In this document: positions 1,837-63,422 of the stretch, in pieces
Layout: each line of letters begins with the position of its first letter
Numbering within the stretch: the stretch's first letter is position 1
Source of the DNA: Candidatus Peregrinibacteria bacterium CG11_big_fil_rev_8_21_14_0_20_49_14
GTDB lineage: Bacteria; Patescibacteriota; Gracilibacteria; Peribacterales; Peribacteraceae
Reading direction: 5' to 3'
NCBI GenBank assembly: GCA_002787035.1
Contig: PCVP01000014.1
Location: 11,542-75,541 of the forward strand
Length of the DNA stretch: 64,000 nt
Position numbers and translations under genes: made by a program
The notes under the pieces: generated by a model
What the model was told of the DNA's origin: nothing
The model's input: only the letters and a program-made list of their open reading frames with translations
Database searches by the model: none

Positions 1837-1916
1837 ATTCAAATACCGTTTGTTCCACATACCCCTTTCATGGTTCGCTTTTTGTAAAACAGTTATACTG
1901 AGTCGCACCTTCTCCC

Positions 1917-2516
1917 ATGCCTCCAATGAACTACCGCGCATACGTTGCCGAACTTATCGGCACCGCCACACTTACGCTTTCTGTCTTGGTGACTCTCAGT
2001 TCAGGATTGGCACTGGCCACACCCGTTGCCGCAGGTCTTACTCTTGCGCTGTTTGTGTACACCATCGGGCCTATCAGCGGATCCCATATAAACCCTGCAG
2101 TCACAGTAGGACTCTGGAGTATTGCAAAAATTAAAACCGACGAAGCAATCAAATATATTCTCTCGCAGGTCGTCGGAGCGTTTTTGGCATTGCAACTCGT
2201 GTCGCTACTCGGGCTGAACATCGCGAATGTATCCGCAGTCGATTCTCTTGCCGTCGGCGTGGCAGAAGCGTTGGGTGCGTTCTTTCTCGTGTTTGGAATT
2301 TGCAGCGTTGTGTACGGGAAAGTAAGTGATGTTGCCTCCGGCATAGTAATAGGAGGTTCGCTACTGCTCGGGATAACTGCAGCAGCCTCTTTTTCCAACG
2401 GCGTACTGAACCCGGCTGTTGCGATAGGAATAGGATCTGTATCGCTTACGTACCTTCTTGCTCCGCTTGTCGGAGGAGTGGCTGCGGCGAAACTCTACAC
2501 GTGGCTGATAAAATAA
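1917..2516 (+). CDS. aquaporin / MIP family channel
   Basis: Two NPA motifs (ISGSHINPAVT, VLNPAVA), AELIGT in the first helix, six hydrophobic segments. Confidence 0.95.
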   Translation: MPPMNYRAYVAELIGTATLTLSVLVTLSSGLALATPVAAGLTLALFVYTIGPISGSHINPAVTVGLWSIAKIKTDEAIKYILSQVVGAFLALQLVSLLGLNIANVSAVDSLAVGVAEALGAFFLVFGICSVVYGKVSDVASGIVIGGSLLLGITAAASFSNGVLNPAVAIGIGSVSLTYLLAPLVGGVAAAKLYTWLIK

Positions 2517-2569
2517 TACTGCAGTAGCACGTTTTTTAAAGGGAAAGAGAGTCCGTGGGAGGAAATAAG

Positions 2570-2596
2570 CCTGTCCTGAGCTCGCCGAAGGGCAGG
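2570..2596. repeat. REP-like short palindrome CCTGTCCTGAGCTCGCCGAAGGGCAGG
   Basis: Inverted CCTG...CAGG arms in the intergenic region, followed by related TTCGACTCGCTTCGCT sequence. Confidence 0.5.
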
Positions 2597-2687
2597 TTTC
2601 TTCGAACTCGAATTACGGAGGGCTCTTCGACTCGCTTCGCTTGTTCAGAGTCATTCGATACTCTCATTAGTACGAAAAATGAGTCCG

Positions 2688-2732
2688 TGGTTTACCATGA
2701 GCGAAGCGAACGAAGTGAGCGGAGTCGAATGG
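2688..2732 (-). repeat. tRNA-3'-attached repeat (CCATTCGACTC...CGCTCATGGTAAACCA)
   Basis: Shares both ends with the elements after tRNA-Ile and tRNA-Val. Confidence 0.8.
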
Positions 2733-2806
2733 TACCCCGGACAGGGATCGAACCTGTGACCTACAGCTTAGAAGGCTGCCGCTCTATCCAACTGAGCTAC
2801 CGGGGC
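2730..2806 (-). tRNA. tRNA-Arg(UCU)
   Basis: GCCCCGG-TAGCTCAGTTGGATAGAGC, anticodon arm GCAGC-CTTCTAA-GCTGT, GGTTCGATCC T-arm, encoded CCA. Confidence 0.97.
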
Positions 2807-2978
2807 ATACGGGACAAGATACTAGACGAGTGATACGAACGAGCGAACTTTTTTATAACGCCCCGCAAGCGGGACTGGGCCAACTGAGCTACCGGGGCAT
2901 ACGGGACAAGATACTAGACGAGTGATACGAACGAGCGAACTTTTTTATAACGCCCCGCAAGCGGGGCTAGGCCAACTG
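2788..2978. repeat. 92-bp tandem duplication including the tRNA-Arg 5' 19 nt and its upstream region
   Basis: CCAACTG units begin at 2788, 2880 and 2972. The first two units are near-identical. Confidence 0.9.
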
Positions 2979-3122
2979 CCTGCCCTGCACCGGAGCGGAG
3001 CGACTGGTGCGGGGAGCTACGAGGCTCTCACCTATTATATCAGGAAGGAATGGCTTATTCATGCAGAAATGAGAGCGAGTTGCTTGGCAGATGGCTCTGC
3101 GACCCCTATTATGCGAGCCGAT

Positions 3123-3830: not shown

Positions 3831-3848
3831 TTATTTCCCATTATTCCC

Positions 3849-4397
3849 ATGTCCTCTGACTCCCTCATAGCAACATTTGAACAGGAAGTAGAAAAAGTTT
3901 TGAATCACCTGCATTTGGAATATTCCAAATTGCAAACAGGCAGAGCGAGTGCGGCTCTGGTGGAGCATGCAATGGTGGATGCGTACGGCCAAAAGCAACC
4001 ACTGCGTGAAGTCGCAGGTATTTCCATTTCGGATGCCCGCACAATCGTTATTCAGCCGTGGGATAAATCCATCATGGGTAACGTGGAGAAGGCTATTACC
4101 GTGTTGGATATCGGAACTTCTCCGGTAAATGACGGTATGGTCATCCGCATAAATCTGCCACCTATGACAGAAGATCGCCGCAAAGATATGGTGAAAATTG
4201 TTCACCAAATTGCCGAGGAAAGCCGCATTTCCATTCGGCAGCAACGACAAACTGCTCATGACGGCATAAAAGACGAAGAGAAGGACGAAGATCTCCGTTA
4301 CTCACTCCTGGAGAAGTTGGATAAAGCAGTGAAGGCGGCAAACGACAAAGTGGAAGAGAGTATGAACAAGAAGGAAGAAGAGGTAATGACCGTATAA
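3849..4397 (+). CDS. frr: ribosome recycling factor
   Basis: TGRAS, IQPWD, PVNDG, LPPMTEDRRK. Canonical pyrH-frr synteny. Confidence 0.97.
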   Translation: MSSDSLIATFEQEVEKVLNHLHLEYSKLQTGRASAALVEHAMVDAYGQKQPLREVAGISISDARTIVIQPWDKSIMGNVEKAITVLDIGTSPVNDGMVIRINLPPMTEDRRKDMVKIVHQIAEESRISIRQQRQTAHDGIKDEEKDEDLRYSLLEKLDKAVKAANDKVEESMNKKEEEVMTV

Positions 4398-4414
4398 TGT
4401 GCTAGCATTGCATT

Positions 4415-6409: not shown

Positions 6410-6444
6410 TATATAGAAAGACTGTCAATATTCTTCAACAAGAA

Positions 6445-9042: not shown

Positions 9043-9052
9043 AGTATAAAAA

Positions 9053-9079
9053 TTAGCACTCCATATTATAGAGTGCTAA
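9053..9079 (-). promoter_or_regulatory. CIRCE operator (HrcA site) overlapping the clpB promoter
   Basis: Perfect TTAGCACTC-N9-GAGTGCTAA. Minus-strand TTGACT (9092-9087) N16 TATAAT (9070-9065). Confidence 0.95.
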
Positions 9080-13269: not shown

Positions 13270-15258
13270 TTACTCTTTCGGAAGTACTTTCTGTTCCACC
13301 CATAGCAGCTCGCCATCATTCTTTGTAAGGTAACGTACTTTTGTTTCGTTTTCATTGAACTGTATTTCTCCGATTATTTCGTCATACAACGGGCCTTCGT
13401 GTCCGTTCACCACTGCCAACGCTTTTTTACTGCCAGATTCGGCGTCTAATTTTATAGCCGTATACGCAACGGACACCCCGCTTGGAGCAAACACGGGAGA
13501 AGATACTGTGCTATAAGCAGCTTGACGTGTTCCATCCACTACCATCGTTTGCATGGAACTTTCTCCATCGATTATCAGCAACGGGTAGGCACTGTGCTTC
13601 GCGTCTTCGCTGAATATCAGATTTGTTTTCCCCGTTAAAGATATGAGTGACTGTACGATATTTTCATACGGGTTGTGGAGAGTTTCTTTTCCGGTTTCCG
13701 TGTCGTATAGGACAACTCTCGCTCTGGATCCTCCGGCCTGTCGCAGTAGCGCAACGGTTGTGTTATCCGGACCTACCTGTAAAAAGAATCCCGGAATAGG
13801 CTTGGAAATACCCTGCGTATTTCCGATAGTAAATCTTCCGGATGGATCTGCGTATCCGTACGTATTGCTTTGGAAGCGAAACAGTAGAACAGAACCAACA
13901 GCACTTGGAATAGGTGTGATTTCTGATTGTAAGCCCCCTCTCACCAACTGCCAATTTGAGCCTTTTCTTGCCGCGTACACATACTCTGTTCCGTCCTCGC
14001 TAAATTGCAGTGCTTTGCTTTCTTCGTATGCGCTTCCCTCGACGCCGTTGATGACAGCAAACCACTGGCTTGCTCTCCGTCCCAAAAATCCGATGTTCTT
14101 TCCGTTGCCGCTGAATGTCAGCTCGCGTACTTCATCGTATGGCGTACTTTGTGAACCGTCTGTAATTACATAGTACGTATATTTTCTGTTTCCCGGAGTT
14201 CTGCCGGCCATGTTTCTGAAAATTTCTATGCACTCGGCAGTATTGCACCCTCCGGGTGTCGTAACTTCTATGGTGGTATCGGAAGCTTGTCCCACAACGT
14301 ATGAAACCCTTTCTCCGTCCGGAGAAATGACAGGTTTTTGAATGACGTCATATTGTTTTCCTTCTTCACCATCGATGACTACGAGTGGTTTTTTACTCTT
14401 CCAAGCCGTAAATACCAATTTGCCGGACTTCGTAAACTGCAAAGCATCTTCCGTGACATTACGTAAGTAGTTTTGAGGGATCTTTTCTTCGAGCGTTCTT
14501 GTTCCCTCCAGAGGTGAACCCCTGAGTAATACTGACGGTCCGAAGTCCTTGTATTCCGCCATCTCCACTCCGTTTAAAACTACTTTCATAATTGCCCCGT
14601 CTTTTGCCAAATATGCCATATCTCCTTGTTGGCTTAAGACAGGTACTCCCACTTGGTCATAGAGTTTTCCCGCGATTTCATTTGCCACAATAAATTCTCC
14701 GTACCGCTTCGCAGTTTGCTTCGCAGCAATAATGACGGAAGAACCCTGTATTTTTGTGGAAACGGATTCTATCACTTTGTCCTTGTTTGAGAGCCCCTGT
14801 ATTACTCTTGTTATGGTCATGAGAGTGCTTTCTTCCTGTGGCATTGCCGCACTTTTCATCTTGATTCCGGAAAGATCTTCGGCTCCGTCTTGCACTTCCT
14901 GAATAATATCTCCGATAGACATGGACGTATCTGTTTTCGGAGATTCCGTATCGCTGTTCAGTGCTATTTCAGAAAACTGTTGTGACTGCGGTTCGTCAGG
15001 AAGTATGAGGTGCTCTCTTTGCACTTTTTGCAGCAGTGTCCTCACGGGAGTGAGAAATGTGGAAATCTTCCCGCTGTCGCCACCCACTGCAAACTGCGTC
15101 TCGGTGTTTATCCAACTGGCCAATACCAGATTCAGTCCTGCCAATCCCGCAACACAACCAAGTACAATGCCCCATTTGGACCAATTCTTTTTCGGAGCTT
15201 CCATCAGTTCACTTGGAAGTTCTTGCCTTGAATCTTCTTTTTGTTGTGCGAGTAACAT
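13270..15258 (-). CDS. membrane-anchored beta-propeller (TolB/PD40-like repeat) protein
   Basis: N-terminal TM. Repeated F/I-S-P-D-G...Y and V-x-D/N-G-x-E-G-x-x-Y units. Confidence 0.75.
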   Translation of the reverse strand: MLLAQQKEDSRQELPSELMEAPKKNWSKWGIVLGCVAGLAGLNLVLASWINTETQFAVGGDSGKISTFLTPVRTLLQKVQREHLILPDEPQSQQFSEIALNSDTESPKTDTSMSIGDIIQEVQDGAEDLSGIKMKSAAMPQEESTLMTITRVIQGLSNKDKVIESVSTKIQGSSVIIAAKQTAKRYGEFIVANEIAGKLYDQVGVPVLSQQGDMAYLAKDGAIMKVVLNGVEMAEYKDFGPSVLLRGSPLEGTRTLEEKIPQNYLRNVTEDALQFTKSGKLVFTAWKSKKPLVVIDGEEGKQYDVIQKPVISPDGERVSYVVGQASDTTIEVTTPGGCNTAECIEIFRNMAGRTPGNRKYTYYVITDGSQSTPYDEVRELTFSGNGKNIGFLGRRASQWFAVINGVEGSAYEESKALQFSEDGTEYVYAARKGSNWQLVRGGLQSEITPIPSAVGSVLLFRFQSNTYGYADPSGRFTIGNTQGISKPIPGFFLQVGPDNTTVALLRQAGGSRARVVLYDTETGKETLHNPYENIVQSLISLTGKTNLIFSEDAKHSAYPLLIIDGESSMQTMVVDGTRQAAYSTVSSPVFAPSGVSVAYTAIKLDAESGSKKALAVVNGHEGPLYDEIIGEIQFNENETKVRYLTKNDGELLWVEQKVLPKE

Positions 15259-15331
15259 TTATTTAATTATAACATATTATCGATATATAGGCAATATTTT
15301 GATTTATCAGACATTTCTGTACTATTTTCGC

Positions 15332-19115: not shown

Positions 19116-19181
19116 TAAAGAATTTGGCTTTATTTGGATCTATTCACTGATACAATACGTTAGAATTTTCTCCCCAAGAGT

Positions 19182-19901
19182 ATGACAGACGGACAACAGC
19201 CTCCTGCAGGAGGTACGCCACCACCGCCACCACCCGGCGGCGGAACACCTCCACCACCTCCACCTCCTCCGCCGCCACCCCCACCTCCGTCACCGGAAGT
19301 GAAACCCGTGCGCCCCGGAGACTCTGTTCCCGACGGAGGACTGGACCCCACACAAGTATTTTCTTCTCCTCCTCCACCACCACCACCGCAATCAGGTGGT
19401 GCACAAGGAGGTGCGCAGCCACCGCAAGATCAAGGTCCGCCACCACCGCCCCCCGGGCAAGCAGCGACGAAAGAAATGGGATATGACGATGAAGATATTC
19501 GTGTTCTCGGAGAAGTGGGAAACTACAGATTCGGTTCGGTTAGTTCACAACTCACCAACGATAACATTGCGGTGCCTGTTCATCCTGAAACACAGTTCGA
19601 TGAGCAGTTGTTTCTCACTCTGCTGCGTGGAAGTATTTCTCTCACACGTGATGAAAAGTGGAGAATAATTCAGGCAATTCCAAAGCTCAGTCAGTTCCAA
19701 ATAGATGAGCTCCAAAAAATTCTGGAAGAAGAACGGAAAAAGTTCTCAGAATTATCTCCGAAGCATTTATTGCAGCTTATGAAGCTGGAACAGAAGCACT
19801 CGGATGACTGGAGAGACTTGCAAACCGTCACGGTTCAGCAAAGTGCACAGGCGCAGGAACAACAGGAAGCTGACGAAATACGGAAGCAGTTGGGACTCTA
19901 G
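19182..19901 (+). CDS. hypothetical protein with polyproline N-terminus and helical C-terminal domain
   Basis: Several long poly-Pro runs, then FDEQLFLTLLRGSISLTRDEK...QIDELQKILEEERKKF. Confidence 0.85.
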   Translation: MTDGQQPPAGGTPPPPPPGGGTPPPPPPPPPPPPPPSPEVKPVRPGDSVPDGGLDPTQVFSSPPPPPPPQSGGAQGGAQPPQDQGPPPPPPGQAATKEMGYDDEDIRVLGEVGNYRFGSVSSQLTNDNIAVPVHPETQFDEQLFLTLLRGSISLTRDEKWRIIQAIPKLSQFQIDELQKILEEERKKFSELSPKHLLQLMKLEQKHSDDWRDLQTVTVQQSAQAQEQQEADEIRKQLGL

Positions 19902-26982: not shown

Positions 26983-30549
<3,567 letters not shown>

Positions 30550-31093: not shown

Positions 31094-31094
31094 T

Positions 31095-32111: not shown

Positions 32112-32173
32112 ACTGAAAGAGGGAAAGTACGAGAAGTGTACCAATTCATTTTGTAGTGGTCGAGATGTTGTCT

Positions 32174-43955: not shown

Positions 43956-44041
43956 TCTTTGGCGAAATATACCAGACAAGACTCTTGACAATAAATCTAT
44001 ATTTATTCATACTCACAACCTTTTGATTACCCCTACTTCGC

Positions 44042-45859
44042 ATGTTTTGCACATGTCGCCGCATTCAGACCGTTGCAGTCCTCTCAGGAACTGCACTACT
44101 TCTCACCCTCTTTCACACAGTTCTTGTGTCACCGATTGGCACAGAGGCGATTGCAGCTTCCACAGAATGTGCGGACGGAATAGATAACGATTTCGACGGA
44201 AAAATAGACTACCCACAAGATCCACAGTGTCTCTCTCTTCACGACCAGTCCGAAGGTCCTACGGGAAGAGGCCTGTTTTTGGATATTACGGACGGACTGA
44301 AGACTGTGGCTGCCAACGGACACATGACCTATACTATCAGTCTCAACAGCGACAGAGACGCTATTCAAAACGTGGACGTACAATTCTTCATTCCGCATCA
44401 GACAAATCTTCTTTCTTCCACGAACGGTGGGAGAACAGCAGGGGACTATGTCGTATGGAGAAACGTATCGGTTAACCCGGGAACAACGAAGAAACTCTAC
44501 GTAGACGTCGGTATAAAGCCTCGTGCGCAGCAAGATCTCCTCGTTGTGGGTAAAGTCTATGCCGCAGGAGAAGAAGCAACGGACATTACGCGCATAGAAG
44601 GAAAAGAAGGAGACCCAAATTTCCAAAATGTTCCTGCATTGCGACTTTCAGTGAGTGATGGAAAAGCCTACGCACAGCCAAATGAGAAACTTACATACCG
44701 CATAGTGGTAGACAATACGCACGGTCCGAGCAGAACGTACAGACTTCGTACGGATCTCTCCACATTCCTTTCGTACGTTAATGCCAGCGGAGACCCGCGT
44801 GTGGATAAAAGCATCGTAGAATGGACAAGTCAGCAAATTGAAGCCGGAGAAGTACAAGAATTTTATCTCACTGCTCTAGTGGAACGTGAAACACCAGATA
44901 ATATGGCAGTACAATTTAAAGTCGCATCGGGACCTTCGGTTGCGAAAGATACGACAGGAATTTACAAAGGAACGATGAACTCATCTATCAGCACGTCTAT
45001 TTCAGACGGTTTGGACAGTGCGACAATCGGAGAGAATGTGACGTATACTCTCGTTATTCGAAATGATACGAACAAACTGGCAACGGAAGTAGATGCGAAT
45101 GTTGCACTTCCTCGATACATGGAATTCGTATCTGCGGAAGAAGGAGGACAATGGACAGGAAAGAACGTTCACTGGACAGGTCTTACCGTCAGTCCTCATG
45201 GCTCAAGATCCATTCGTGTCACAGGTAGAATTCGCAGCGATGCGCCCATAGGCACAAAGTTGCGTGCCAGCGGAGAGGTAAAAGGACACGTTGCCGTAGA
45301 TCTTACGAATGTCGATACCGTTCGACGCGGAGGAGGAGGTGGAATTGCACTCGGGTTCGGCCCGGTGGCAACATCTTCACGTGCTCCAATCATACTGCGA
45401 AAGAACGCAGACAGAGGAGAAGTACGCCCCGGCGATACGGTGCGCTACACCCTCTACATGAAGAACAACACGAACCAAGCCTTCGGAAACCTTGTTGTAC
45501 AAGACCGCATGGATACGAATTACATGCAAATTCTTGGCGGACAAGGTGGTCAGCAAAGTGACGGCCGTCTATCATGGCGTGTACCGCAGCTTGCTGCGGG
45601 CCAGGAATGGACAACTTCGTACAGTGTGAGGATCGCCCCGTACGTCCCACATGGAGCAACACTGAATAACGTTGTATCCGTGAGCGGAGACGGAATAGAA
45701 ACATTCTCACTCACTGAGCGTGTCATGACTTCCAATACGAACGTTATTACGGATCTTCCACCTACCGGCGTTAGCTTCGGAGGAATATTTGCGACACTCT
45801 CAGGACTCCTTGGAATGCTTCCTACATTCCTGCAGAGGAAGAGAAAATTCGTTCTCTAG
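44042..45859 (+). CDS. cell-surface protein with DUF11-like Ig repeats, Ca-binding C-x-DGIDNDxDG motif and C-terminal LPPTG-TM-basic tail
   Basis: Signal peptide, ECADGIDNDFDGKIDYPQDPQC, four G/N-x-x-(L/V/M)-x-Y-x-(I/L) repeats, LPPTG. Confidence 0.85.
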   Translation: MFCTCRRIQTVAVLSGTALLLTLFHTVLVSPIGTEAIAASTECADGIDNDFDGKIDYPQDPQCLSLHDQSEGPTGRGLFLDITDGLKTVAANGHMTYTISLNSDRDAIQNVDVQFFIPHQTNLLSSTNGGRTAGDYVVWRNVSVNPGTTKKLYVDVGIKPRAQQDLLVVGKVYAAGEEATDITRIEGKEGDPNFQNVPALRLSVSDGKAYAQPNEKLTYRIVVDNTHGPSRTYRLRTDLSTFLSYVNASGDPRVDKSIVEWTSQQIEAGEVQEFYLTALVERETPDNMAVQFKVASGPSVAKDTTGIYKGTMNSSISTSISDGLDSATIGENVTYTLVIRNDTNKLATEVDANVALPRYMEFVSAEEGGQWTGKNVHWTGLTVSPHGSRSIRVTGRIRSDAPIGTKLRASGEVKGHVAVDLTNVDTVRRGGGGGIALGFGPVATSSRAPIILRKNADRGEVRPGDTVRYTLYMKNNTNQAFGNLVVQDRMDTNYMQILGGQGGQQSDGRLSWRVPQLAAGQEWTTSYSVRIAPYVPHGATLNNVVSVSGDGIETFSLTERVMTSNTNVITDLPPTGVSFGGIFATLSGLLGMLPTFLQRKRKFVL

Positions 45860-45920: not shown

Positions 45921-46238
45921 TTATTGCAGAGAAGTAAATATCTCCTGCATAAGATCTACAATACTGGAGAACGTGAGCTCGAAAGGGATATCGAGCAGGT
46001 TGGCTATAAAACGGACTATAAAAAAAGCGATGAACGACACAAACAGTCCGATGATGGAAAAACGTATAGTATGAACTGCACGCTTAATTTTCTCTTCATT
46101 TCCCGCAGAGAGAATGAATGAGATGCCTCCGAAGATGATGTACACAAGGCAGAGGATGGTAGCAATGATGAGTCCGAGAGCTACGAAGGTAGCAATGATC
46201 TCTATAACGCTAGCGTTCTCAAGCAAATCTCTGAGCAT
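45921..46238 (-). CDS. CPR-type pilin (TrbC/VirB2-like)
   Basis: YIIFGGISFILSAGNEEKIKRA...SIIGL, two TM helices. Confidence 0.82.
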   Translation of the reverse strand: MLRDLLENASVIEIIATFVALGLIIATILCLVYIIFGGISFILSAGNEEKIKRAVHTIRFSIIGLFVSFIAFFIVRFIANLLDIPFELTFSSIVDLMQEIFTSLQ

Positions 46239-46256
46239 ACGCTGAGGGGGGAGAAA

Positions 46257-50648: not shown

Positions 50649-51005
50649 ATGGATAGAAGCAGAGAAAGCAATTGGCTGCTTGAAAAATTGCGATGTGAAG
50701 TTTCGCAGGTCGATGCGGCCTTTATAGTGGAACCTGAAAGGGTGTTACCGTTACCCGACAGAACAATCGTATCTGCCTGGATACAAAAAAGATGCCAAAC
50801 AGTCATCAGGCTTGGTGATGAAATCCTTCATGAAAGTACACCGAAGGTAATACAGGTTTGCAAAATAACTCTGAATACCGGCAAAGGAGTTCCAAGACCC
50901 ATAGATGTATCGGATGTGCACGACGAAGCAGCGATCGTCGTTATGCAGCTTATGAATTCCTTACAAAACAGGCAGTGGGAACTGCTGCGAAAAGAAGAGG
51001 GCTAG
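50649..51005 (+). CDS. hypothetical protein
   Basis: 118-aa ORF from the ATG at 50649 filling the purA-nadK gap. Confidence 0.5.
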   Translation: MDRSRESNWLLEKLRCEVSQVDAAFIVEPERVLPLPDRTIVSAWIQKRCQTVIRLGDEILHESTPKVIQVCKITLNTGKGVPRPIDVSDVHDEAAIVVMQLMNSLQNRQWELLRKEEG

Positions 51006-51886
51006 TCCACTCGTTCGCCCCACTTCAATTTTTCTCGAAGAGTGTGAAAAAACGTATCTTGTTTTAAGCGCAGAAACTTTACGGTGTCACCGCAAGCACA
51101 TGCTGTTACTTTATCTCCGTTTTCAAGCGGTACGTACACTTGTCCGTCGACGGTAAGTACGACCTCCGTATCTTTAAACTTGTTCGATTTTGTCATCACT
51201 TCAACCGTCACTTTCTGGTTGCTGGGTATGACCACAGGTTTCTGGCTGAAGCTGTGCGGATTGATTGGCGTGAGGATGGTTGCAGCCAATGTAGGGTGGA
51301 CTATGGGACCTCCGGCAGCAAGAGAATAGGCGGTTGAGCCCGTGGGTGTGGCTATTATAAGCCCATCCGCATGGTACGACGTAAGATCTTCCCCGTTGAC
51401 CATCGTGCGCAAATCCACGAGTCTTGCGATAGTTCCCTGCGCGATAACAGCTTCATTGAGCGCGAATCCTTCAAAAACATTTTTTGTACCTCTCGTGGCA
51501 ACAACGGAAAGAATACTGCGATTTTCAAGTACGCCTTCACCGGTAAGAAGCCTAGGGATAATGGTGTCCGCATCGGCGATCTCCGTCTCAGCCAAGAATC
51601 CGACTGTCCCTCTGTTCACACTCAGAATTGGTGTTTTGAATGTTCTCAGCTCTCGTATTGCACGAAGGATTGTGCCGTCACCCCCTATGACAACCAATAA
51701 ATCTATGTCATCTTCGCTATGAAATTGAGCAAAATCTTTTGAACAGTCAACATCACTCAACCTGGTTGGGTCTGTATAAATTACCGCTCCCAGATCCGTA
51801 AGTATTGTAAGCACTTTCGAGACGGATTCATTTTTATACGTCAGGCCCGATTTCACCGTCACGCCGATGCGCTTGTATTGCAACAT
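51002..51886 (-). CDS. nadK: NAD(+) kinase
   Basis: GGDGT, GTVGFL, ALNE, DGLIIATPTGSTAYSLAAGG. Confidence 0.96.
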   Translation of the reverse strand: MLQYKRIGVTVKSGLTYKNESVSKVLTILTDLGAVIYTDPTRLSDVDCSKDFAQFHSEDDIDLLVVIGGDGTILRAIRELRTFKTPILSVNRGTVGFLAETEIADADTIIPRLLTGEGVLENRSILSVVATRGTKNVFEGFALNEAVIAQGTIARLVDLRTMVNGEDLTSYHADGLIIATPTGSTAYSLAAGGPIVHPTLAATILTPINPHSFSQKPVVIPSNQKVTVEVMTKSNKFKDTEVVLTVDGQVYVPLENGDKVTACACGDTVKFLRLKQDTFFHTLREKLKWGERVD

Positions 51887-51890: not shown

Positions 51891-52949
51891 CTATTGTAAC
51901 ACTTTCACAATATTGAGAAAGAGATCTGCCGTTCGTTTCCAGGAAAAAGTACCTGCCTGAACGGGTCCTTGCGTACGAAGACGGGAACGAACCGACTCAT
52001 TTGTGAGAATGGTACTCAAACCCGAAGCAATGCTGCGTACGTCTTCGGGGTCCACCAGTAGCGCCGAATCTCCTGCAACCTCCGACAAACTGCCACGGTC
52101 TGACGTGAGAACAGGTACCCCGCGTTGCAAGGCATCCAGAACCTGCATGCCGAACCCCTCGTAGAGAGAAGGCAATGCCAATACGGCACATGAATGAAGA
52201 AGATCCCTGTACTGTTGCTCATCTATGTATCCTATAAAATCGGCACCGTCTGTCTCTTGTGCCAAACGTACGATATTGTTGTCGTTCCATCCTCGACCTC
52301 CTGCAAGAACCAACTTATATTTTTTTCGCAGATTTTCAGGGAGTGAGGCGTATGCCTGAAGAAGTCGGTACTGATTTTTACGAGGTGACAATGTTGCGAC
52401 GCACAGAATCATGTTTTCATTCGACTCAGATACGGCAGCACTTTCACGCACAGGACCCGCAAAAATGGGAGTGATGGCAGTCTCCGAAAGTGAAGGAAAT
52501 TGCTTGAGCAGATCATTTTTCGTAGAGGTACTTACAGTGAGAATGTGGGCGGCTTTCCGCAGTGCCCCTTTCGCAAGCAGACGCTCTATGATTGTTGCTT
52601 TCTTATTGTGAATATCGGGTCTGAAAGCAATGAGGTCGTGTACGACAGGTATGCAGAGATATTTTTTGGGAAGGAAGAACGGTACGATAAAACTCGTGAG
52701 GCTAACGTACATAGACGGCTGTTTTAACCCGACAAAATAAAGGAAAGCGCGAACGTGCCACAGAACACCTGAACGGAATGTTTTTGTTTTCGGTGAGTAT
52801 TGCTCCCACTCAGAAGGTAACGGAGAGTCGCACAGGAGAATCAATTCTTGCTCCCTGCGAAGCAGCTCAGATACAAGTCCGTACGTCCACTGACCTTTGC
52901 CGGCTCTCTGAGAGCGGCACGCTTCCCGAACATCCACTGCCAAATTCAT
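51891..52949 (-). CDS. glycosyltransferase family 4
   Basis: VHDL, TLSPRKN, PSLYEGFG, SLSEV. Confidence 0.93.
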   Translation of the reverse strand: MNLAVDVREACRSQRAGKGQWTYGLVSELLRREQELILLCDSPLPSEWEQYSPKTKTFRSGVLWHVRAFLYFVGLKQPSMYVSLTSFIVPFFLPKKYLCIPVVHDLIAFRPDIHNKKATIIERLLAKGALRKAAHILTVSTSTKNDLLKQFPSLSETAITPIFAGPVRESAAVSESNENMILCVATLSPRKNQYRLLQAYASLPENLRKKYKLVLAGGRGWNDNNIVRLAQETDGADFIGYIDEQQYRDLLHSCAVLALPSLYEGFGMQVLDALQRGVPVLTSDRGSLSEVAGDSALLVDPEDVRSIASGLSTILTNESVRSRLRTQGPVQAGTFSWKRTADLFLNIVKVLQ

Positions 52950-54873: not shown

Positions 54874-55893
54874 TTAGAGGAAGGAACCAACTTTTAAAAC
54901 CATTTCTGTTACGCGCATTGCGTATCCCCACTCATTGTCATACCAGCTTAAAAGCTGAACCACATTTCCATCTATGACTTTCGTAAATGTTTCATCCACT
55001 ATCGAAGAATGCGGATCTGTTTGAAAATCAATAGACACTCTTTCATCGTTGGAAACCGAGAGAATGTCTTTCAATGCGGGGGAAGCAGCAGCTTGTTCCA
55101 GTTTGGAAATTACTTCCGCCTCAGTCGTGTCTTTTTCCAGTGAGAAAGCCATGTAGGAACAACTGACCGTGGGAACAGGCACGCGAAAAGCCATACCGTC
55201 TATTTTACCTTTTAATTCCGGGAATATTGCCGCACAAGCTTTTACAGCTCCTGTTTGCGTAGGAATAACAGAAAGAGTGGCAGCTCGTGATCGTCGTAGA
55301 TCATTGCCTTCCTGAGACTTGTTATCCAGCAGGTTCTGAGAAGCTGTGAATGCATGCACGGAGCTGACAAGAAGACTCTGCACTCCAAATGCTTCATGCA
55401 TGACTTTTATGACAGGTGCGATACAGTTGGTGGTACAAGAAGCATTCGAAACAATGGGCATATCCGCCGTAAGCTCGTGATCGTTCACTCCTATGACAAA
55501 CGTAGGAGTGCCGTCTTTCATGGGAGCGGTAACCACAACCTTTTTGGCGCCTGCGGACAAATGATGCCCGGCACTTTCCGCACTCGTAAAATGTCCCGTG
55601 GATTCAACAACCACATCCACACCCAGTTCTTTCCAGGGGCAAAGAGCCGGATCTTTCTCTTTCACCACACGCACTTTGGTTCCGTTGACGGAAATGTGAT
55701 CGTCATCCAACACAGAAACCTCTCCCACGAATCGTCCGTGCAGTGAATCGTACTTCAAAAGGTATGCGCGCATAGCCGCGTCCGATGATGCGTTTACGGC
55801 AACAACCTGCACTCGATCACCGTATTTTTCCACAAATTGACGGTGAACATTTCGTCCTATTCGACCGTAACCGTTAATGGCTATCTTCAGCAT
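54874..55893 (-). CDS. second type I GAPDH, GapB-like (probably NADP-preferring)
   Basis: INGYGRIGR, VNASS, ASCTTNC, LLDN, WYDNEWGY. Directly upstream of fbp on the same strand. Confidence 0.9.
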   Translation of the reverse strand: MLKIAINGYGRIGRNVHRQFVEKYGDRVQVVAVNASSDAAMRAYLLKYDSLHGRFVGEVSVLDDDHISVNGTKVRVVKEKDPALCPWKELGVDVVVESTGHFTSAESAGHHLSAGAKKVVVTAPMKDGTPTFVIGVNDHELTADMPIVSNASCTTNCIAPVIKVMHEAFGVQSLLVSSVHAFTASQNLLDNKSQEGNDLRRSRAATLSVIPTQTGAVKACAAIFPELKGKIDGMAFRVPVPTVSCSYMAFSLEKDTTEAEVISKLEQAAASPALKDILSVSNDERVSIDFQTDPHSSIVDETFTKVIDGNVVQLLSWYDNEWGYAMRVTEMVLKVGSFL

Positions 55894-57031: not shown

Positions 57032-57062
57032 GAATAAGAGACTAGCGTAACGCAGTAATTTT

Positions 57063-58433
57063 TCAAGACTGTGTGTGCACCTTGTCCACGTCGTAAAAAC
57101 GCATCTGCTCTTTCTTAAAGAGCAGTTCCACACGGCCAGTAGGACCGTTTCGATGTTTGCGGATGTAAATATCTGTCATGCCGGGACGGTCGCTGTCTTC
57201 TTCGTAATAGTCTTCTCTGTACATCATAAGCACCACATCAGCATCTTGCTCTATGGATCCCGATTCGCGAAGATCCGAGAGCGCCGGAATGTTCCCGGGC
57301 CTGTTTTCCACCGCTCGTGACAACTGAGAGAGTGCAATGACAGGAACATGAAGTTCCCTTCCAATTTGTTTCAGAGAACGAGAGATTTCAGAAATTTCCT
57401 GCACCCTGTTTCCTGCATAGCTCTGATTTCCGGTACTCATGAGCTGCATATAGTCGATAACGAGGAGATCCAGTCCGTGTTCCATCTGCAACCTGCGAGC
57501 CTTTGCACGTAATTCCGGTATGGACGAGGCGACCGAATCATCTATGAATATTTTGGATTTGTTCAGTTCGTCCATTATCGGACCCATGTTTTGGAAGTCA
57601 CTGTCATCCAGTTTTCCTTTTTGCAGTTTCCACGAGTCGACTCCGAGCATGGATGCAAACAGACGATCTACCAATTGTTCTTTGCTCATTTCCAATGAGA
57701 AAATTCCGACGCTCTTGCCTGACTTAATGGCAGCATTTTGAGCAATATTCAATGCCAAGCTCGTTTTTCCCATGCTGGGACGAGCGGCGATAATAATAAG
57801 GTCACTGGGCTGGAAGCCTGACAGTTTTGCATCCAAAGCATGAAAACCGGAGGGAACACCTTTCACAGGATCGTCGTCGTCGGATTCGTGCATTTCGGCA
57901 AATTTTTCGTATCGCAATTCAAGAATATCTCGAATATGGACAAATTTGTCTTTCATAAACATATTCGATATTTCGAACACAGATTTTTCAACTTCATCCA
58001 GCAGTTCGGGAATGTTTCTGTTTTCCTCGTATCCCAATCCTTTTATTTTGTCTCCTGCTCGAATGATGCGCCTGTGCACAGACTTGGTTTTGACTATTTG
58101 ACCGTACTGGTAGACATGGGAAGACGTGGGGACATCCGAAGCCAGAGCCGCCAAAAATGAACTGCCTCCTACCTCATCTATTTTGGAATTACCTGCGAGT
58201 TTGTTACTGACAGTAACGAAATCGATAACTTCATGATTTTGATGCAATTGATAAATTGCTGAGAAAATTAGCTTATACGTAGGGTCGTAGAAATCTTCAG
58301 GCGTCAAGAAGTCACTGATCTTTATGATGGCATCGGGATCTAAGAGCAATGCACCGAGCACGGTTTTTTCCGCATCCGTGGAATGAGGCTGCGTGTCGAG
58401 TGCTGGCGGTGTTTTTTTTGCTGCTGCGTCCAT
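57063..58433 (-). CDS. dnaB: replicative DNA helicase
   Basis: AARPSMGKT, SLEM, DYMQL, LSQLSR, SDLRESGSIEQDAD, KHRNGP. Confidence 0.98.
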   Translation of the reverse strand: MDAAAKKTPPALDTQPHSTDAEKTVLGALLLDPDAIIKISDFLTPEDFYDPTYKLIFSAIYQLHQNHEVIDFVTVSNKLAGNSKIDEVGGSSFLAALASDVPTSSHVYQYGQIVKTKSVHRRIIRAGDKIKGLGYEENRNIPELLDEVEKSVFEISNMFMKDKFVHIRDILELRYEKFAEMHESDDDDPVKGVPSGFHALDAKLSGFQPSDLIIIAARPSMGKTSLALNIAQNAAIKSGKSVGIFSLEMSKEQLVDRLFASMLGVDSWKLQKGKLDDSDFQNMGPIMDELNKSKIFIDDSVASSIPELRAKARRLQMEHGLDLLVIDYMQLMSTGNQSYAGNRVQEISEISRSLKQIGRELHVPVIALSQLSRAVENRPGNIPALSDLRESGSIEQDADVVLMMYREDYYEEDSDRPGMTDIYIRKHRNGPTGRVELLFKKEQMRFYDVDKVHTQS

Positions 58434-58527
58434 AGGGGAGGGGATGAATTCTGATCGTAACCAGGCATCCGATCAATCCATTCCCCCTTGCCAAAGTGTC
58501 GAGGCATCATGCAATACGGGGAGCAAA

Positions 58528-58547
58528 TGTGGAAAAAGTGTGGATAC
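58528..58547 (-). promoter_or_regulatory. two tandem DnaA-box-like 9-mers upstream of dnaB
   Basis: TTTTCCACA (matches TTWTNCACA) and GTATCCACA (one mismatch), 2 bp apart. Confidence 0.45.
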
Positions 58548-58573
58548 CATCAAAGATTCTGTACAATACACAT

Positions 58574-59224: not shown

Positions 59225-59228
59225 CAAT

Positions 59229-60356
59229 TTACATGTCCGCAGCTTTTCGAATCTCTTTGATGAGACCTGCAGCTATTTTGGGATTTTCCATGAGATAAAT
59301 TCTCGCCTGCTCTTTGCCCTGACCTATTGTTTCTTCACCGTGACGGAAATACGCTCCCGCCCTCTCCAAAATACCAAACTTCACACCAAGCTCTAATATA
59401 TCTCCCTCACAACTTATACCTTTATTGTAGAGAATATCGAATTCGGCTTGTCGAAAGGGTGGTGCGACCTTGTTTTTCACCACCTTTACACGAGTACGGT
59501 TTCCCACAATTTCTTGTGTGGCACCGTCCGGTCCCGTGGATTTTTCCAATATTTTATCGATACGGCGAACATCCAAGCGCAATGAAGAGTAGAACTTCAA
59601 TGCTTGCCCGCCAGCCGTGGTTTCCGGGTTACCGAACATGACCCCTATCTTCATGCGAATCTGGTTAATGAAGATAACACTGGTACCGCTCTTTCCGACT
59701 ACGGCAGTAAGTTTCCGCAGTGCCTGACTCATAAGACGTGCCTGTAAACCCATTTGAGGGTCTCCCATACTTCCTTCAATTTCCGCACGAGGAGTAAGGG
59801 CCGCGACAGAGTCTATGACAATAATGCTAATGGCTCCGCTGCGAACAAGTGTTTCGCAAATCTCCAATGCCTGTTCTCCGCAATCGGGCTGAGACACAAG
59901 CAGTGCGTCTATATCCACTCCGATTCTTTTTGCATACTGAATATCCAACGCATGCTCCGCATCTATGAATGCGGCTCTGCCGCCTCTTTTCTGTACCTCT
60001 GCGATCGCATGAAGTGACAATGTGGTTTTTCCACTGCTCTCCGGACCATAAATTTCAATAATTCGCCCCTCCGGAATACCACCGCCAAGAGCGAGATCCA
60101 GCGCGAGAGAGCCGGACGGATACCGCTTGATGTGCCTGTGCGCGTTTTCATCCATTTTCATAATGGCACCTTCGCCGTGCTGCTTTTCTATGTGCGCCAA
60201 GGCTGCAAGGATGGCTTCGTCTTTTGCCTGTTCTATGGGATCGACTTTTTTAGCCGGTTTTGATTTGGATTCCATCGCAGATGCGATGATGGAAGACTCG
60301 TTAACTTGAGGATCTTTCATTACTGCGGTTGAGGAAGAGGTGGATGCTTTGACCAT
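59229..60356 (-). CDS. recA: recombinase RecA
   Basis: [39 protein letters not shown]. About 35-aa N-terminal extension. Confidence 0.99.
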
Positions 60357-60502
60357 AATACTAGGGGGAAGTTGGGAAGTATGAAATAGGATTTACCAAG
60401 GTGAACGGTTATACACCACCTTACGCAAAAGAGCGTACAGATAAAAACAATTGCACTTGCAAGGCAATAGAATAATGGTGGTGTACTGTAGTACACCTAC
60501 TT

Positions 60503-61321
60503 TTACAGAGGCGTACACGTACCGATATCTTGCTCCGTATCGGTCACTTCACAGTATTGGCCGGACGGACAGAGTACACCCGCAGGACCGCCGCAAGGAC
60601 CACCCGTTACAGCTCCACCCGAGCCCAATGCGGGCTGTTGTGACGACGACGCATCTTCTGTGTGGAGTTCCAACGATGCCAACAGGGAAAGCCACTGTTC
60701 CCGCAGCTCAGCTGCATTCGGGCTCTGATCCGCAGAGAACAGCATGGTAAGCATGGTGTCACCATGATGAACGTACACAGCCTGAGTGCCTGTCTGCTCA
60801 TTGATAATACGCACGGCAGGGAAACCGTCTACGACGATGGAGACACCGAACGGAAACTCTTCCGGTGCGTCCTGTGCAGACAGCGAGAGCACGGGTTTCT
60901 CCTGTGAAGGCGCAAAGAAGAACGATGTGCCTCCTTCTTTCGTGTGCGTCCATTCTTTGGGAGCATCCAAGCTGAGCAAAAGATGTGTAAGATCCCAACG
61001 CTTGGTGGTTGTTTCACTTTCTACGACAGATTCCACAACAAGTACCGGCAGCAACTTATCGTCAATATTCGGCTCTAAGACTCCTCGCAATGTCACCATT
61101 TTTCGTTCGTAGGCACGTAAGGTAATGAGTGTGCTCTCAACGAAATACAGCTCCTTTCCGTTTTTTGTGAGTACATGAGTTCCGCGACGGGCCAAAGAAA
61201 GCTCTGCGGGCATAAGAATACCCGAGACAGTTTGCTCTCCCTTCGGCAGAGGTGGGAGTGGCTCTTTCGCACAAGAAGCAAGAAGAAGACTGGCCAGTAA
61301 AAAAAGCTTTACGGACTTCAT
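60503..61321 (-). CDS. lipoprotein with C-terminal Cys-rich CGG-x-AG-x-x-C...C...C domain
   Basis: Lipobox LASC. N-terminal domain similar to that of 20580..21545. Confidence 0.82.
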   Translation of the reverse strand: MKSVKLFLLASLLLASCAKEPLPPLPKGEQTVSGILMPAELSLARRGTHVLTKNGKELYFVESTLITLRAYERKMVTLRGVLEPNIDDKLLPVLVVESVVESETTTKRWDLTHLLLSLDAPKEWTHTKEGGTSFFFAPSQEKPVLSLSAQDAPEEFPFGVSIVVDGFPAVRIINEQTGTQAVYVHHGDTMLTMLFSADQSPNAAELREQWLSLLASLELHTEDASSSQQPALGSGGAVTGGPCGGPAGVLCPSGQYCEVTDTEQDIGTCTPL

Positions 61322-61338
61322 GGTTTCAAAGTGAAAGC

Positions 61339-62442
61339 TTACTTCTTCGCGGAGTCGAATGCATACACAGCACGACCAACACGTTTGAAGTATGGCATTT
61401 TCTGAAGGTTGAGTGAAATGGTACCCACCTTCACAGTGCGCTGCTTTGCAACCTCAGCGATAATTTCTTTTTTACTGAGAGAACCTTTATCGATAAGAAT
61501 TTTTTCTATCACATCAGCAACCGTTCCCGGCTCATACCCCCATTCACGCAGCGCGTAGAGTCCGCGTCCGACCAGGACAAATTGCGGATAACGAATCAGT
61601 TCGTTGTGCACGGCCTGAACAGTAACGTTCTTGTGGTCAAAACCTGCCTCGCGAATGCGGTTCGCAATTTCCATAAAGTGAAGAGGCTCGCCTGTTTTCT
61701 TCAAAATGATTTCCACCTTATCTCGAATACTTCGTGGTCGAACGAATCTCCAATCTGTCAGTCCCCATCCTTCTGAAATTTCTTTGAGTCTTTCATCCAC
61801 AGCGAGACAGCTGACAATCAGCTCTCTGCTCGGAATGCGTCCCTCGAAGAGGTTGAGAGACTGAATGGCAGAGACAATCTCATCTGTCTGCATACAAGAC
61901 TTTCTTTTCTTCAGGATTTTTACGATGTTATTCACGATCATCTGTACATCGTCCATTGCCAGAGAATCCAATCTCCAGAATGGTCGGAAATTGTTGCTCT
62001 TGCTACCTCGCTGAATTTCGTTGTCGATAGAGAAGGAGAGGCGAAGTACTGACCCATCGAGATCCTTGCTGTCCTGAATACGTTTCAGTACGGCACTGAC
62101 CAGGGCACTCTCTGCCATCACACCACCGTGTGCGTGCAAAATACTCTTCGCAAGATCGTTAACCTCATCCAAACGCGTCGTACGAACCGTACGGCGAAGT
62201 TTTCCAAGTGCGATACTCTCAATTTGACGAATGCGTTCTCGTGTGACATTAAAATGCTTTCCGATCTTCTCCAAAGTCTGCTTTTGACTACCCTGCAGTG
62301 CAAAACGTTTTTTAATTACAGCTGATTCCTTATCTGTAAGGACGAGGAAAAGGTTACTGAGCAACTCATCGAGATCAAGCACAAGTTGCTTGCTAGGAGC
62401 TTTCTGCTGGGAAATTGTGGTTTGGACTGCGAGGTCGGACAT
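61339..62442 (-). CDS. sigma70 region-4 HTH fused to HARE-HTH / RNA polymerase delta-like winged helices
   Basis: TLEKIGKHFNVTRERIRQIE, PLHF-x-EI, VHNELI...FVLVGRGLYAL-x-EWGY. Confidence 0.85.
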   Translation of the reverse strand: MSDLAVQTTISQQKAPSKQLVLDLDELLSNLFLVLTDKESAVIKKRFALQGSQKQTLEKIGKHFNVTRERIRQIESIALGKLRRTVRTTRLDEVNDLAKSILHAHGGVMAESALVSAVLKRIQDSKDLDGSVLRLSFSIDNEIQRGSKSNNFRPFWRLDSLAMDDVQMIVNNIVKILKKRKSCMQTDEIVSAIQSLNLFEGRIPSRELIVSCLAVDERLKEISEGWGLTDWRFVRPRSIRDKVEIILKKTGEPLHFMEIANRIREAGFDHKNVTVQAVHNELIRYPQFVLVGRGLYALREWGYEPGTVADVIEKILIDKGSLSKKEIIAEVAKQRTVKVGTISLNLQKMPYFKRVGRAVYAFDSAKK

Positions 62443-62617
62443 AGAGTGAAGGGGAGAACAACCCTCGTTTTACCAAAAAATTGACAGAAACAAAAGTTAT
62501 ATGAGCGGTTCGGGTAGACTTTTAAGTGTACTTGTTGCGTACGAACTTTTGGTAATCGGAGAATGTTCAAAGAGCAAAGGATAATACTTTAATGACATTT
62601 AAACATTTGTCAACATT

Positions 62618-62995
62618 TTAACTTCCTCTTTTCTGACGGTCACAGAAGGTCAAAAGAAGTTGACATGCCGCCGCAGCATCGGGGTCCACATCCGACAGGG
62701 TGGGGGTGGAATATCGCTCATCTAATAAGGATACATGTATCCCAAGATCTTCCAGTGCTTCTGCCACTGAATGCACATGAATACACTGTGACCCCTCTTC
62801 GCCTCCGGGTAACAAGGGGAGACCGCATACCACAGTGTGAATATCCCGATCTTTCACAAGAGAGAGAATTTGACTGATCAGCTCGTCTTCACTCACGTGA
62901 AATACCGTACTGAGAGCGATGGGAACGCCCGTATCGGCAGAGCAGAATGCCACTCCGGTTCGTCTTAGGCCGATATCGAGCGCGAGAATATTCAC
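62618..62995 (-). CDS. ruvX: YqgF/RuvX family nuclease
   Basis: LALDIG-x-RRTGVA, VCGLP, DERYST, D-x-x-AA. Confidence 0.92.
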   Translation of the reverse strand: MNILALDIGLRRTGVAFCSADTGVPIALSTVFHVSEDELISQILSLVKDRDIHTVVCGLPLLPGGEEGSQCIHVHSVAEALEDLGIHVSLLDERYSTPTLSDVDPDAAAACQLLLTFCDRQKRGS

Positions 62996-63037
62996 TGCAA
63001 AAAAGAGTACGCGATCTGCGAAGGTACGGCGAGAATG

Positions 63038-63301
63038 TTACTTACAGGCAGCAACCAACTTTGCCATGCGAGCCTTCCTTCTGGATGCCGCATTGCGGTG
63101 GATAATGTGTTTCTTAGCTGCGGTGTCTATGGACTTAAACACAGTAGGGAGCAATGCCTCCGCATCTGCTTTCTTTCCTTCTTTCGTCAGATCCGTAATT
63201 TTACGAATCATGGTTTTCATGTGCGTTTTGAAAGGAAGACGACGCTGGCGACGTACTTCGTTTTGCTTGGACCTTTTGATGGCGGACTTAATAAGTGGCA
63301 T
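63038..63301 (-). CDS. rpsT: 30S ribosomal protein S20
   Basis: MPLIKSAIKR...IDTAAKKHIIHRNAASRRKAR. Confidence 0.97.
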   Translation of the reverse strand: MPLIKSAIKRSKQNEVRRQRRLPFKTHMKTMIRKITDLTKEGKKADAEALLPTVFKSIDTAAKKHIIHRNAASRRKARMAKLVAACK

Positions 63302-63422
63302 AAAGCTGGGAAATCCTACGCAAGCGACTCTCTTCGGTCAAGGAAAGATAGGAAAAAGAAGAAAGAAAATCCCTGCATCCTCTCATTGACTGAATTTCAA
63401 TTATCCGCTTATATATGCGCAT

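Follow-up and report, generated by a model that had tools for sequence, protein, structure and literature searches.

C/U-rich leaders with a positionally fixed C peak ahead of the start codon, in place of Shine-Dalgarno sequences, in a Peribacteraceae genome

Shine-Dalgarno (SD) sequences are scarce in the genome of Candidatus Peregrinibacteria bacterium CG11_big_fil_rev_8_21_14_0_20_49_14, and its leadered genes are preceded by a C/U-rich, weakly folded tract with a peak of C at a fixed position. The signal is this tract and not a word. An initial annotation of the 64,000-nucleotide stretch analysed here (the window; contig PCVP01000014.1, positions 11,542 to 75,541, or G000:C27:11542-75541 in our numbering) had quoted ten C-rich strings lying where an SD sequence would be expected, and all ten were found verbatim, directly before the start codons concerned and on the right strands. 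Taken jointly with the explanation of the tract developed below, we think it fairly probable that the ribosomes of this Peregrinibacteria/Peribacteria-type bacterium of the candidate phyla radiation (CPR) do not start by SD pairing.

Genes were called over the whole genome (1.44 Mb in 46 contigs, rated 98.55% complete) with our own open reading frame (ORF) caller, in which dicodon scores trained on long ORFs were followed by greedy selection. Among the 1195 genes obtained, 363 had an unambiguous start, i.e., a first start codon at most 90 nt from an in-frame stop and no alternative start over 20 codons. Unless stated otherwise, the data below refer to these 363 genes and to positions -20 to -1 before the start codon (the leader). 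SD words were depleted in this set: GGAG was seen 16 times (31.9 expected), GAGG 13 times (21.0), AGGA 18 times (25.6), and GGAGG 6 times (6.7). GGAAG, the complement of the genome's own 16S tail, was seen once for 11.6 expected. An SD word preceded 20 genes (6%), as compared to 22 of 33 genes (67%) when 100 kb of E. coli K-12 was put through the identical pipeline; GAGG was seen 11 times in this control for 1.0 expected. Purine-rich GGAGG-like words showed no positional peak before the starts, the E. coli control being positive. The impression gained from the window that there was no convincing AGGAGG was therefore correct at the level of the genome. G accounted for 12-20% of the leader bases, and for 9% (with 69% pyrimidines) before 29 starts anchored by homology (genes for ribosomal proteins, elongation factors, NusG, RpoA, and SecY), as compared to 28% G and 34% pyrimidines in the same region of 38 E. 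coli query genes. These anchors were obtained by tblastn searches using ribosomal proteins and elongation factors of E. coli as queries; 29 of 34 genes were kept, rpsE, rpsJ, rplL, rpoB, and rpoC being dropped because of an offset. Strong avoidance of G, which had been put forward as one possible basis of the signal, thus applied genome-wide.

The single 16S gene (contig C32, 5' end cut) ends with ...GGAUGGAACACUUCCUUA and is followed by the trailer CCAGGGAAUUUUUU. Its tail reads ...GGAACACUUCCUUA / CACUUCCUUA, the Rfam match extending to the end of the model, so that the anti-SD core is CUUCC and not CCUCC. The mean hybridization energy of the leaders with this tail was about 0 kcal/mol at -19 to -10, as compared to -1.5 kcal/mol in coding sequence, which is the reverse of an SD trough. 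With a canonical tail, the same profile was also weakest (about 0 kcal/mol) at these positions. An energy of -5 kcal/mol or lower with the 16S tail was reached by 7% of the genes and by 26% of the coding controls. The 16S 3' end and the hybridization profile, to which the initial annotation had pointed as places to look, thus agreed: CCUCC has given way to CUUCC, and there is no SD trough. In 23 aligned 16S tails of the family, the core was CUUCC in 9, UUUCC in 4, UCUCC in 7, and CCUCC in 3. CCUCC is intact in the family members G004, G045, and G055 and in the outgroup G026, and no SD use was found in those that we analysed (G004, G055, and G026). Candidatus Peribacter riflensis is listed, in the part of the source available to us, as an SD-scarce organism without CCUCC and with 7% SD genes (PMC10783764). 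With few SD genes and a non-canonical anti-SD, the present genome fits the same class (class iv, PMC10783764).

The words that were enriched in the leaders were C-rich: CCCC was seen 45 times (12.3 expected), CCCCT 29 times (3.0), and TCCCC 24 times (3.7). After removal of genes with a -10 box at leaderless distance, 240 non-leaderless genes remained, in which CCC started at -13, -12, and -11 in 18, 22, and 15 cases, respectively. This makes 55, as compared to 7.6 expected from a background of 2.55 per position (mean over -60 to -21; Poisson, 1.7e-28). Positional enrichment of CCC was thus present genome-wide with the leaderless-type genes excluded, and neither the anti-SD nor the SD frequency was normal. 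The C core had been placed about 6-10 nt upstream of the start codon, and the spacing from the last C of the run to the start codon indeed peaked at 8-10 nt (31 of 81 genes). C made up 42, 38, 35, and 32% of the bases at -12, -11, -10, and -9, a rise that occurred at the expense of A and T, G staying flat at about 15%. A C-run at this position (CCC starting at -15 to -9) preceded 52 of the 363 genes (14%), as compared to 19 in a control interval, and 13 of the 61 genes of the window. When the columns were shuffled, CCCC was found in 14.8 +/- 3.6 genes, as compared to 31 observed (reached in 0 of 1000 shuffles), and pyrimidine runs of at least 10 were found 3.2 times, as compared to 19 observed. 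A specific CCUCC or CUUCC word was considered and rejected, since CCTCC (19 seen, 10.3 expected) and CTTCC (22 seen, 12.0 expected) did not stand above other pyrimidine 5-mers.

The start regions were also weakly folded. The folding energy over -30 to +30 was -8.29 kcal/mol, as compared to -11.70 kcal/mol in coding sequence (Wilcoxon, 1e-22), and it was weakest in the genes with a C-run (-6.29 kcal/mol). The tract was stronger before translation genes and before genes with high codon adaptation: the codon adaptation index (CAI, computed as adaptation to a set of translation genes) had a median of 0.716 in 48 genes with CCC and of 0.697 in 188 genes without it (p = 3.9e-4, reference genes removed), and it correlated with the pyrimidine fraction (rho 0.20) and with the G fraction (rho -0.22) of the leader. 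Immediately before the start codon, C made up 28-47% of positions -3 to -1 in five family genomes, G being rare (8%) and T common (41%) at -1, and the arrangement CCC-ATG was seen in frr, in the MIP gene at 1917, and in others. This C near -3 to -1 may be a separate and wider context effect; the outgroup G026 also has C at -2 and -1.

We examined four further genomes of the family (G004, G007, G043, and G055; 400-617 kb each). CCCC was seen 34, 27, 37, and 23 times in these, for 5.4, 6.1, 14.0, and 3.5 expected, respectively (45 for 12.3 in the present genome, G000). GGAG was depleted whatever the anti-SD variant (5 for 8.8, 7 for 12.9, 4 for 16.3, and 2 for 6.8 in the same order). The C peak was found at -12 to -9 in all five genomes, whose GC content ranges from 47 to 60%. 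Two class-level outgroups, G026 (107 genes) and G040 (only 37 genes, from 100 kb), showed no enrichment of CCCC (3 for 3.9 and 1 for 0.8), no C-run, and no SD in these samples, and their leaders were A/T-rich. As both are devoid of SD, SD loss seems to be wider than the family, while the C peak appears to be a trait of the family among the genomes sampled. An order can be read from this distribution: neither the family nor the two outgroups analysed make use of SD, the anti-SD of the family is in decay, and it is only there that a C/U tract with a fixed peak is found.

Individual genes gave a similar picture. In 30 family genomes, the start of DnaK (MSK[IV][IL]GID, mostly MSKIIGID) was kept and the leaders contained 4% G; an SD word was present in 0 of 30, CCC in 11 of 30, and no G at all in the last 20 nt in 16 of 30. 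A CIRCE-like repeat lay within 60 nt of dnaK in 22 of these 30 genomes. Before recA, the C-tract was kept at four Peregrinibacteria/Peribacteria loci (L005-L008), and AGGAG or AAGGGAG stood in its place at two Saccharibacteria loci (L009 and L010). The closest public recA loci were 83, 71, and 69% identical (metagenome-assembled genomes (MAGs) of Candidatus Peregrinibacteria, Peribacteria, and Peribacteraceae), and an unclassified MAG was 79% identical. Orthologues of gap in 15 genomes, starting with MN[IL]AINGF, had CCC in the leader in 9 of 15 cases (by our reading); in 3 of 15, a -10 box at or near leaderless distance was found instead of the tract, which suggests that the leaderless and tract modes may interchange.

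The leaderless class itself was recognized with an expectation-maximization (EM) motif search, which returned an extended -10 motif, GGTAtAAT, with the hexamer ending 6-9 nt before the start codon. TANNNT was present at leaderless distance in 123 of the 363 genes, and from one-fifth to one-third of the genes are probably leaderless. This resembles leaderless initiation in Actinobacteria, Deinococcus, and archaea, in that about one-third of the genes have a -10 box at the distance predicted from the sequence for a transcript beginning with its start codon. Genes that have a leader or lie inside operons are not covered by leaderless initiation, and it is these that carry the C/U tract.

The change in the anti-SD is part of a conserved structure. 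The anti-SD and the first bases of the trailer can form a hairpin, (C/U)UCCUU-ACC-AGGGA(G/A) (L001 1160-1175, on G000:C32). The base pair formed by the second C of CCUCC and its partner in the trailer was U:A in 13 and C:G in 9 cases, with 0 unpaired (22 distinct rows among the 23 family tails). As the change from C to U is always matched by a change from G to A, the anti-SD/trailer hairpin is kept. G006 fits this covariation, and G079 has a variant. In the class outgroups, the compensating changes are located elsewhere (CCUCU/AGAGG, CUCU/AGAG, and GCC/GGC), and a complement of this kind was present in all three 16S tails of Saccharibacteria (obtained from five genomes searched). We considered whether the hairpin was a sufficient cause of SD blindness and rejected this, because Saccharibacteria share the complement and two of them carry an SD before recA. 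The hairpin is thus a general feature of pre-rRNA and not the cause of SD loss. The pattern does show, at the level of the aligned tails, that an anti-SD no longer used for SD pairing evolves as a stem arm, and the compensated mutation reveals a constraint that is left on the 16S tail after SD loss. The 16S tree of the family has an unresolved base and 5 of 29 inner branches well supported (G072 has an aberrantly long branch, and G042 was dropped because of an N), so that independent anti-SD changes cannot be counted on it. A second, mutually exclusive trailer hairpin, formed by CCAGGG(A) and a downstream (Y)CUCUGG or CCUGG (L001 ~1167-1190), was present in 19 of 23 minimum-energy folds; it may be a switch in the processing of pre-16S rRNA.

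We propose that two start modes replace SD pairing, one for leaderless genes and the other for leadered genes, including operon-internal ones, with a G-poor, C/U-rich leader and a C peak 9-13 nt upstream. Being poor in G and rich in C/U, such leaders are weakly folded, and the tract would give the 30S subunit an open place to land, after which the initiator tRNA and the initiation factors would select the start codon. The fixed distance of the C peak would suggest a contact on the platform or exit-channel side, the normal site of the SD helix. The reader would most likely be a protein. The first candidate is a bS1 homologue of 489 aa (C18:59505-60971), which aligns with domains 1-4 of E. coli-type S1 models (positions 21-378 of a 580-position model); it falls below all NCBIfam equivalog cut-offs, and Pfam finds two S1 stretches above threshold. 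By inference, the tract would raise initiation, its reader being bS1 or some other protein. bS18 was found, and bS21 (Ribosomal_S21) was not found in this genome, rated 98.55% complete. The group is frequently without bS21, according to the part of PMC9297842 at hand. The scheme as a whole, i.e., SD-free initiation in two modes with a protein-read C/U tract as landing site, appears to us reasonably probable. It can be sharpened by supposing that the C-run 9-13 nt upstream is a sequence-specific ribosome-binding site of this one CPR family, read at the lost SD-helix site of a bS21-less ribosome. The reading component could then be one of the platform proteins, bS1, or a segment of rRNA, and the element would have arisen after class-wide SD loss; we regard this more specific proposal as possible but doubtful.

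Several observations weigh against the proposed scheme. The C-run at the peak position is found in a minority of genes (14-22%). Shuffling within leaders showed no over-representation (CCC, 81 observed for 81.1; CCCC, 33 for 26.9, reached in 93 of 1000 shuffles). When a first-order model of the leaders served as background, every pyrimidine 5-mer was about 2-fold up and none dominated, and the EM search, which found the -10 box, rendered the C signal just as a diffuse pyrimidine pattern. The CAI differences are small, and CAI reflects expression only indirectly. Since all 41 relatives searched have the bS1 homologue, the outgroups without a C-run among them, it is no discriminator, and its scores are below the equivalog cut-offs. 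The start calls rest on our own ORF caller, on an unambiguous subset of 30%, and on 29 homology anchors. The results obtained with shuffled leaders and with the leader-fitted background are what one would expect if nothing more than G and structure were being kept out of the leaders, and neither the C-run nor its position had a reader. This would also fit with the finding that the leaders with a C-run are the least folded (-6.3 kcal/mol) and with the proposal, made in the accessible part of PMC5397173, that weak structure around the start is a general feature of non-SD genes. However, the outgroups are equally poor in G (13 and 6%) and are A/T-rich without a C peak, and avoidance of G by itself needs no C. 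The gain of C at -12 to -9 in the present genome is made at the cost of A and T, with G flat at about 15%, and the peak is sharp (18, 22, and 15, for a background of 2.55) and recurs at -12 to -9 in five genomes that differ in GC content (47-60%). We therefore consider this purely compositional explanation as conceivable but not probable. That the signal results from wrong start codons or from gene selection is hardly credible. The starts are those of our own caller, and the filter for unambiguous starts bars in-frame ATG, GTG, and TTG upstream, which makes G slightly less frequent at -1, -4, -7, etc. Yet E. coli gives a textbook SD under the identical filter, the signal is stronger at homology-anchored starts, the Pfam profiles of dnaK, gap, and rpsT begin within the first 4 residues, and the N-termini are kept in 30 genomes for dnaK and in 15 for gap.

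The initial annotation had suggested an altered, G-rich 16S 3' tail as one possible partner of the C-rich tracts. In its most explicit form, the mature 16S rRNA would keep a part of the trailer, …CUUCCUUACCAGGGAA, and GGG(A/G) would pair with the C-rich tract as an SD of inverted polarity; a canonical 16S end is ...CUUCCUUA (...CCUUA), and an end with retained trailer would follow ...CCAGGGA(A). Such pairing is suggested by the sequence TTACCAGGGA, which comes right after the canonical 16S end and is invariant in the 23 aligned family genomes, and by the trailer CCAGGGAA, which holds the only G-run nearby, the canonical tail having none. The mature 16S 3' ends are also described as differing among species in the part of PMC6288834 that we could use. 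Nevertheless, the duplex profile calculated with CCAGGGAAUU was nearly flat (-2.85 vs -2.49 kcal/mol), and the leaders favour CCCC, CCCCT, and TCCCC rather than UCCCU, the word that such pairing predicts (12 seen, 3.7 expected). The ratio of UUCCC to CUCCC was 23:24 in the genome with GGAA and 9:15, 10:5, 17:13, and 7:5 in genomes with GGAG; because it ignores the trailer variant, there is no covariation of the tract with the trailer. Furthermore, the GGG is engaged in two conserved intramolecular hairpins, one with the anti-SD and one with the downstream CYCUGG (19 of 23 minimum-energy folds), and a similar trailer complement occurs in 3 of 3 Saccharibacteria, two of which have an SD at recA. 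Four RNA runs yielded contigs with short conserved pieces of 16S, mostly 95-99% alike and with hardly any depth beyond ~L001 1160; they contained no organism-specific piece across the 16S tail and say nothing either way on the mature end. Elsewhere in the rRNA, an alignment of full-length 16S from 12 family members, 6 outgroups, and E. coli showed no free, family-specific G-run. The G-runs of the family are at E. coli positions ~783-786, 952, and 1219-1222, of which the last two, we presume, lie in helices. The first belongs to helix 24, where the family has a GGGG/CCCC stem (E. coli ~783-786/797-800) with compensating CCCC, as compared to ACAG/CUGG-type pairs in E. coli. We consider pairing with a retained trailer to be quite improbable. 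A non-canonical initiation signal, as originally claimed, was thus borne out with respect to the mutated anti-SD, the rarity of SD, the strong avoidance of G, and the positional enrichment of C, but not with respect to a G-rich 16S tail as the partner. Still less probable is a link with transcription, in which the C-run would be an element close to the promoter, a rut-like site for Rho, or the region where short leaders start. Rho prefers C-rich, G-poor RNA. In several genes with a C-run, a TATAAT-like box precedes the run by 11-13 nt, and their leaders are therefore short. On the other side, the share of operon-internal genes (those with a same-strand neighbour ending at most 30 nt upstream) was equal among genes with a C-run (16 of 50) and all non-leaderless genes (79 of 240), the C-run lay anywhere from 0 to 56 nt from the -10 box but at a near-fixed distance from the start codon, and G-free pyrimidine spacers precede genes inside ribosomal-protein operons. 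The reading as a Rho site was rejected, since the RNA-binding domain of Rho was not found in this genome rated 98.55% complete. These four findings tie the tract to the start codon.

The preferred scheme, with a protein-read tract as a landing site, can be compared to known systems. As in classical SD/anti-SD initiation, the element keeps a set spacing to the start codon (8-10 nt from the end of the run), occurs inside operons, and is stronger before highly expressed genes. It differs in consisting of pyrimidines rather than purines, in lacking complementarity to the 16S tail, and in having no single consensus word. Bacteroidia leaders are A-rich, whereas those described here are C/U-rich. Like the present lineage, in which some members have an intact CCUCC, Bacteroidia are SD-blind and have weakly structured leaders; in the parts of the reports on them that we consulted, bS21, bS18, and bS6 sequester the anti-SD (PMC9976891, PMC13000453). 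In the present genome, bS21 was not found, so that the sequestration pocket cannot be the same, and the anti-SD itself decays. With bS1-assisted initiation, as covered by the available part of PMC5397173, the scheme shares low folding at the start, a pyrimidine-rich single-stranded leader, and the presence of a bS1 homologue; the S1 sites known from that source are U-rich and lie upstream of an SD, while the tract described here is C-rich, occupies the SD position, and is found in a genome without SD.

That Peribacter has lost SD and anti-SD has been published before, as far as the part of PMC10783764 at our disposal goes. The SD-scarce lineage described there is the same as ours or a close one and likewise has a mutated anti-SD and very few SD genes (here, 6% by words and 7% by a duplex of -5 kcal/mol or lower). 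The accessible part of PMC10783764 reports the absence of SD, with no C-rich or pyrimidine replacement, and the positional tract is described here. The literature in the form available to us contained no C- or pyrimidine-rich start signal for Peregrinibacteria or CPR, though supplementary tables may list the lineage. The Peribacter genome paper, in the portion seen, makes no mention of Shine-Dalgarno, ribosome binding, or start codons, and Peregrinibacteria are not mentioned in the main text of Amin et al. 2018. To our knowledge, the new elements are the positional C/U tract, the contrast between family and outgroups, the compensated anti-SD change, and the negative tests of rRNA pairing. How starts are found without SD is poorly understood outside Bacteroidia, cyanobacteria, and leaderless systems, and the lineage offers a clean natural case, in which the fixed position of C raises the testable question of what reads the tract. 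The finding is also relevant to the expression of CPR genes in standard hosts and to the design of CPR expression signals.

In the window, the gene names used in the initial annotation were supported by Pfam for frr (RRF), dnaK (HSP70), gap (Gp_dh_N), rpsT (S20), dnaB, and recA, while the 'pilin' gave only a weak match to T4SS_pilin. On the plus strand, the frr leader TTTCCCATTATTCCC (3834..3848) precedes the ATG of CDS 3849-4397 (RRF). The leader TTTTCTCCCCAAGAGT (19166..19181) precedes that of gene 19182-19901, which has no Pfam family and a TACAAT box farther upstream, and the leader TACCCCTACTTCGC (44028..44041) precedes that of a gene for a DUF11 surface protein (Pfam; CDS 44042-45859). 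On the minus strand, similar leaders were found before the ATG of the pilin-like small gene (TTTCTCCCCCCTCAGCGT, 46239..46256; CDS 45921-46238; T4SS_pilin, 28.2 bits), dnaB (CCCCTCCCCT, 58434..58443; CDS 57063-58433; DnaB and DnaB_C), recA (CTTCCCCCTAGTATT, 60357..60371; CDS 59229-60356; RecA), a gene with Sigma70_r4 and HARE-HTH Pfam domains (TTCTCCCCTTCACTCT, 62443..62458; CDS 61339-62442), and rpsT (TTTCCCAGCTTT, 63302..63313; CDS 63038-63301; Ribosomal_S20p). A NUDIX gene starting with GTG at 58496 (plus strand) provides an example beyond the ten, with the leader ATTCCCCCTTGCCAAA (58480..58495). Two genes of the minus strand exemplify the leaderless type: gene 13270-15258, with a TATAAT box (15266..15271) ending 7 nt before the ATG at 15258, is likely leaderless, and the NAD kinase gene (51002-51886) has TACAAT (51893..51898) ending 6 nt before the ATG at 51886.

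The dnaK leader ATTCCCTTTGTAACT (28630..28644, plus strand; CDS 28645-30549, with position 1 of the HSP70 profile at residue 4) lies downstream of an inverted repeat, TTGGCACTC-N9-GAGTGCTAA (28597..28623, plus strand), which marks the start of the leader and is presumably the CIRCE operator of HrcA. Repeats of this type occur before dnaK (28597-28623, +) and clpB (9053-9079, -), with a -10-like hexamer inside the 9-nt spacer, so that heat-shock operator and promoter overlap. In RecA, the Pfam domain is preceded by about 46 additional residues (position 2 of the profile at residue 48). At the related recA locus L006, two in-frame ATGs are found 33 nt apart, and as each follows its own C-tract and TA-rich spacer, the true start at this locus is uncertain. 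In the search for homology anchors, the starts of uS10, uS5, and bL12 apparently lay 44, 13, and 12 codons farther upstream than in E. coli, possibly because of N-terminal extensions or because the anchors are wrong. Several small contigs (C41, C19, C35, C46, C25, and C9) each carry a part of the ribosomal-protein gene clusters.

Gene finders that expect an SD will misplace starts in such genomes, as illustrated by gap. The longest ORF (31095-32144, minus strand) begins with TTG at 32144, 33 nt too early. Both Pfam (position 1 of the Gp_dh_N profile at residue 1) and the 15 orthologues indicate that the true start is the ATG at 32111 (CDS 31095-32111), which directly follows the leader TTTCCCTCTTTCAGT (32112..32126, minus strand). 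A second GAPDH paralogue (54883-55887, minus strand; G000:C27:66424-67428) is 45% identical to gap, and two copies are present in most genomes of the family.

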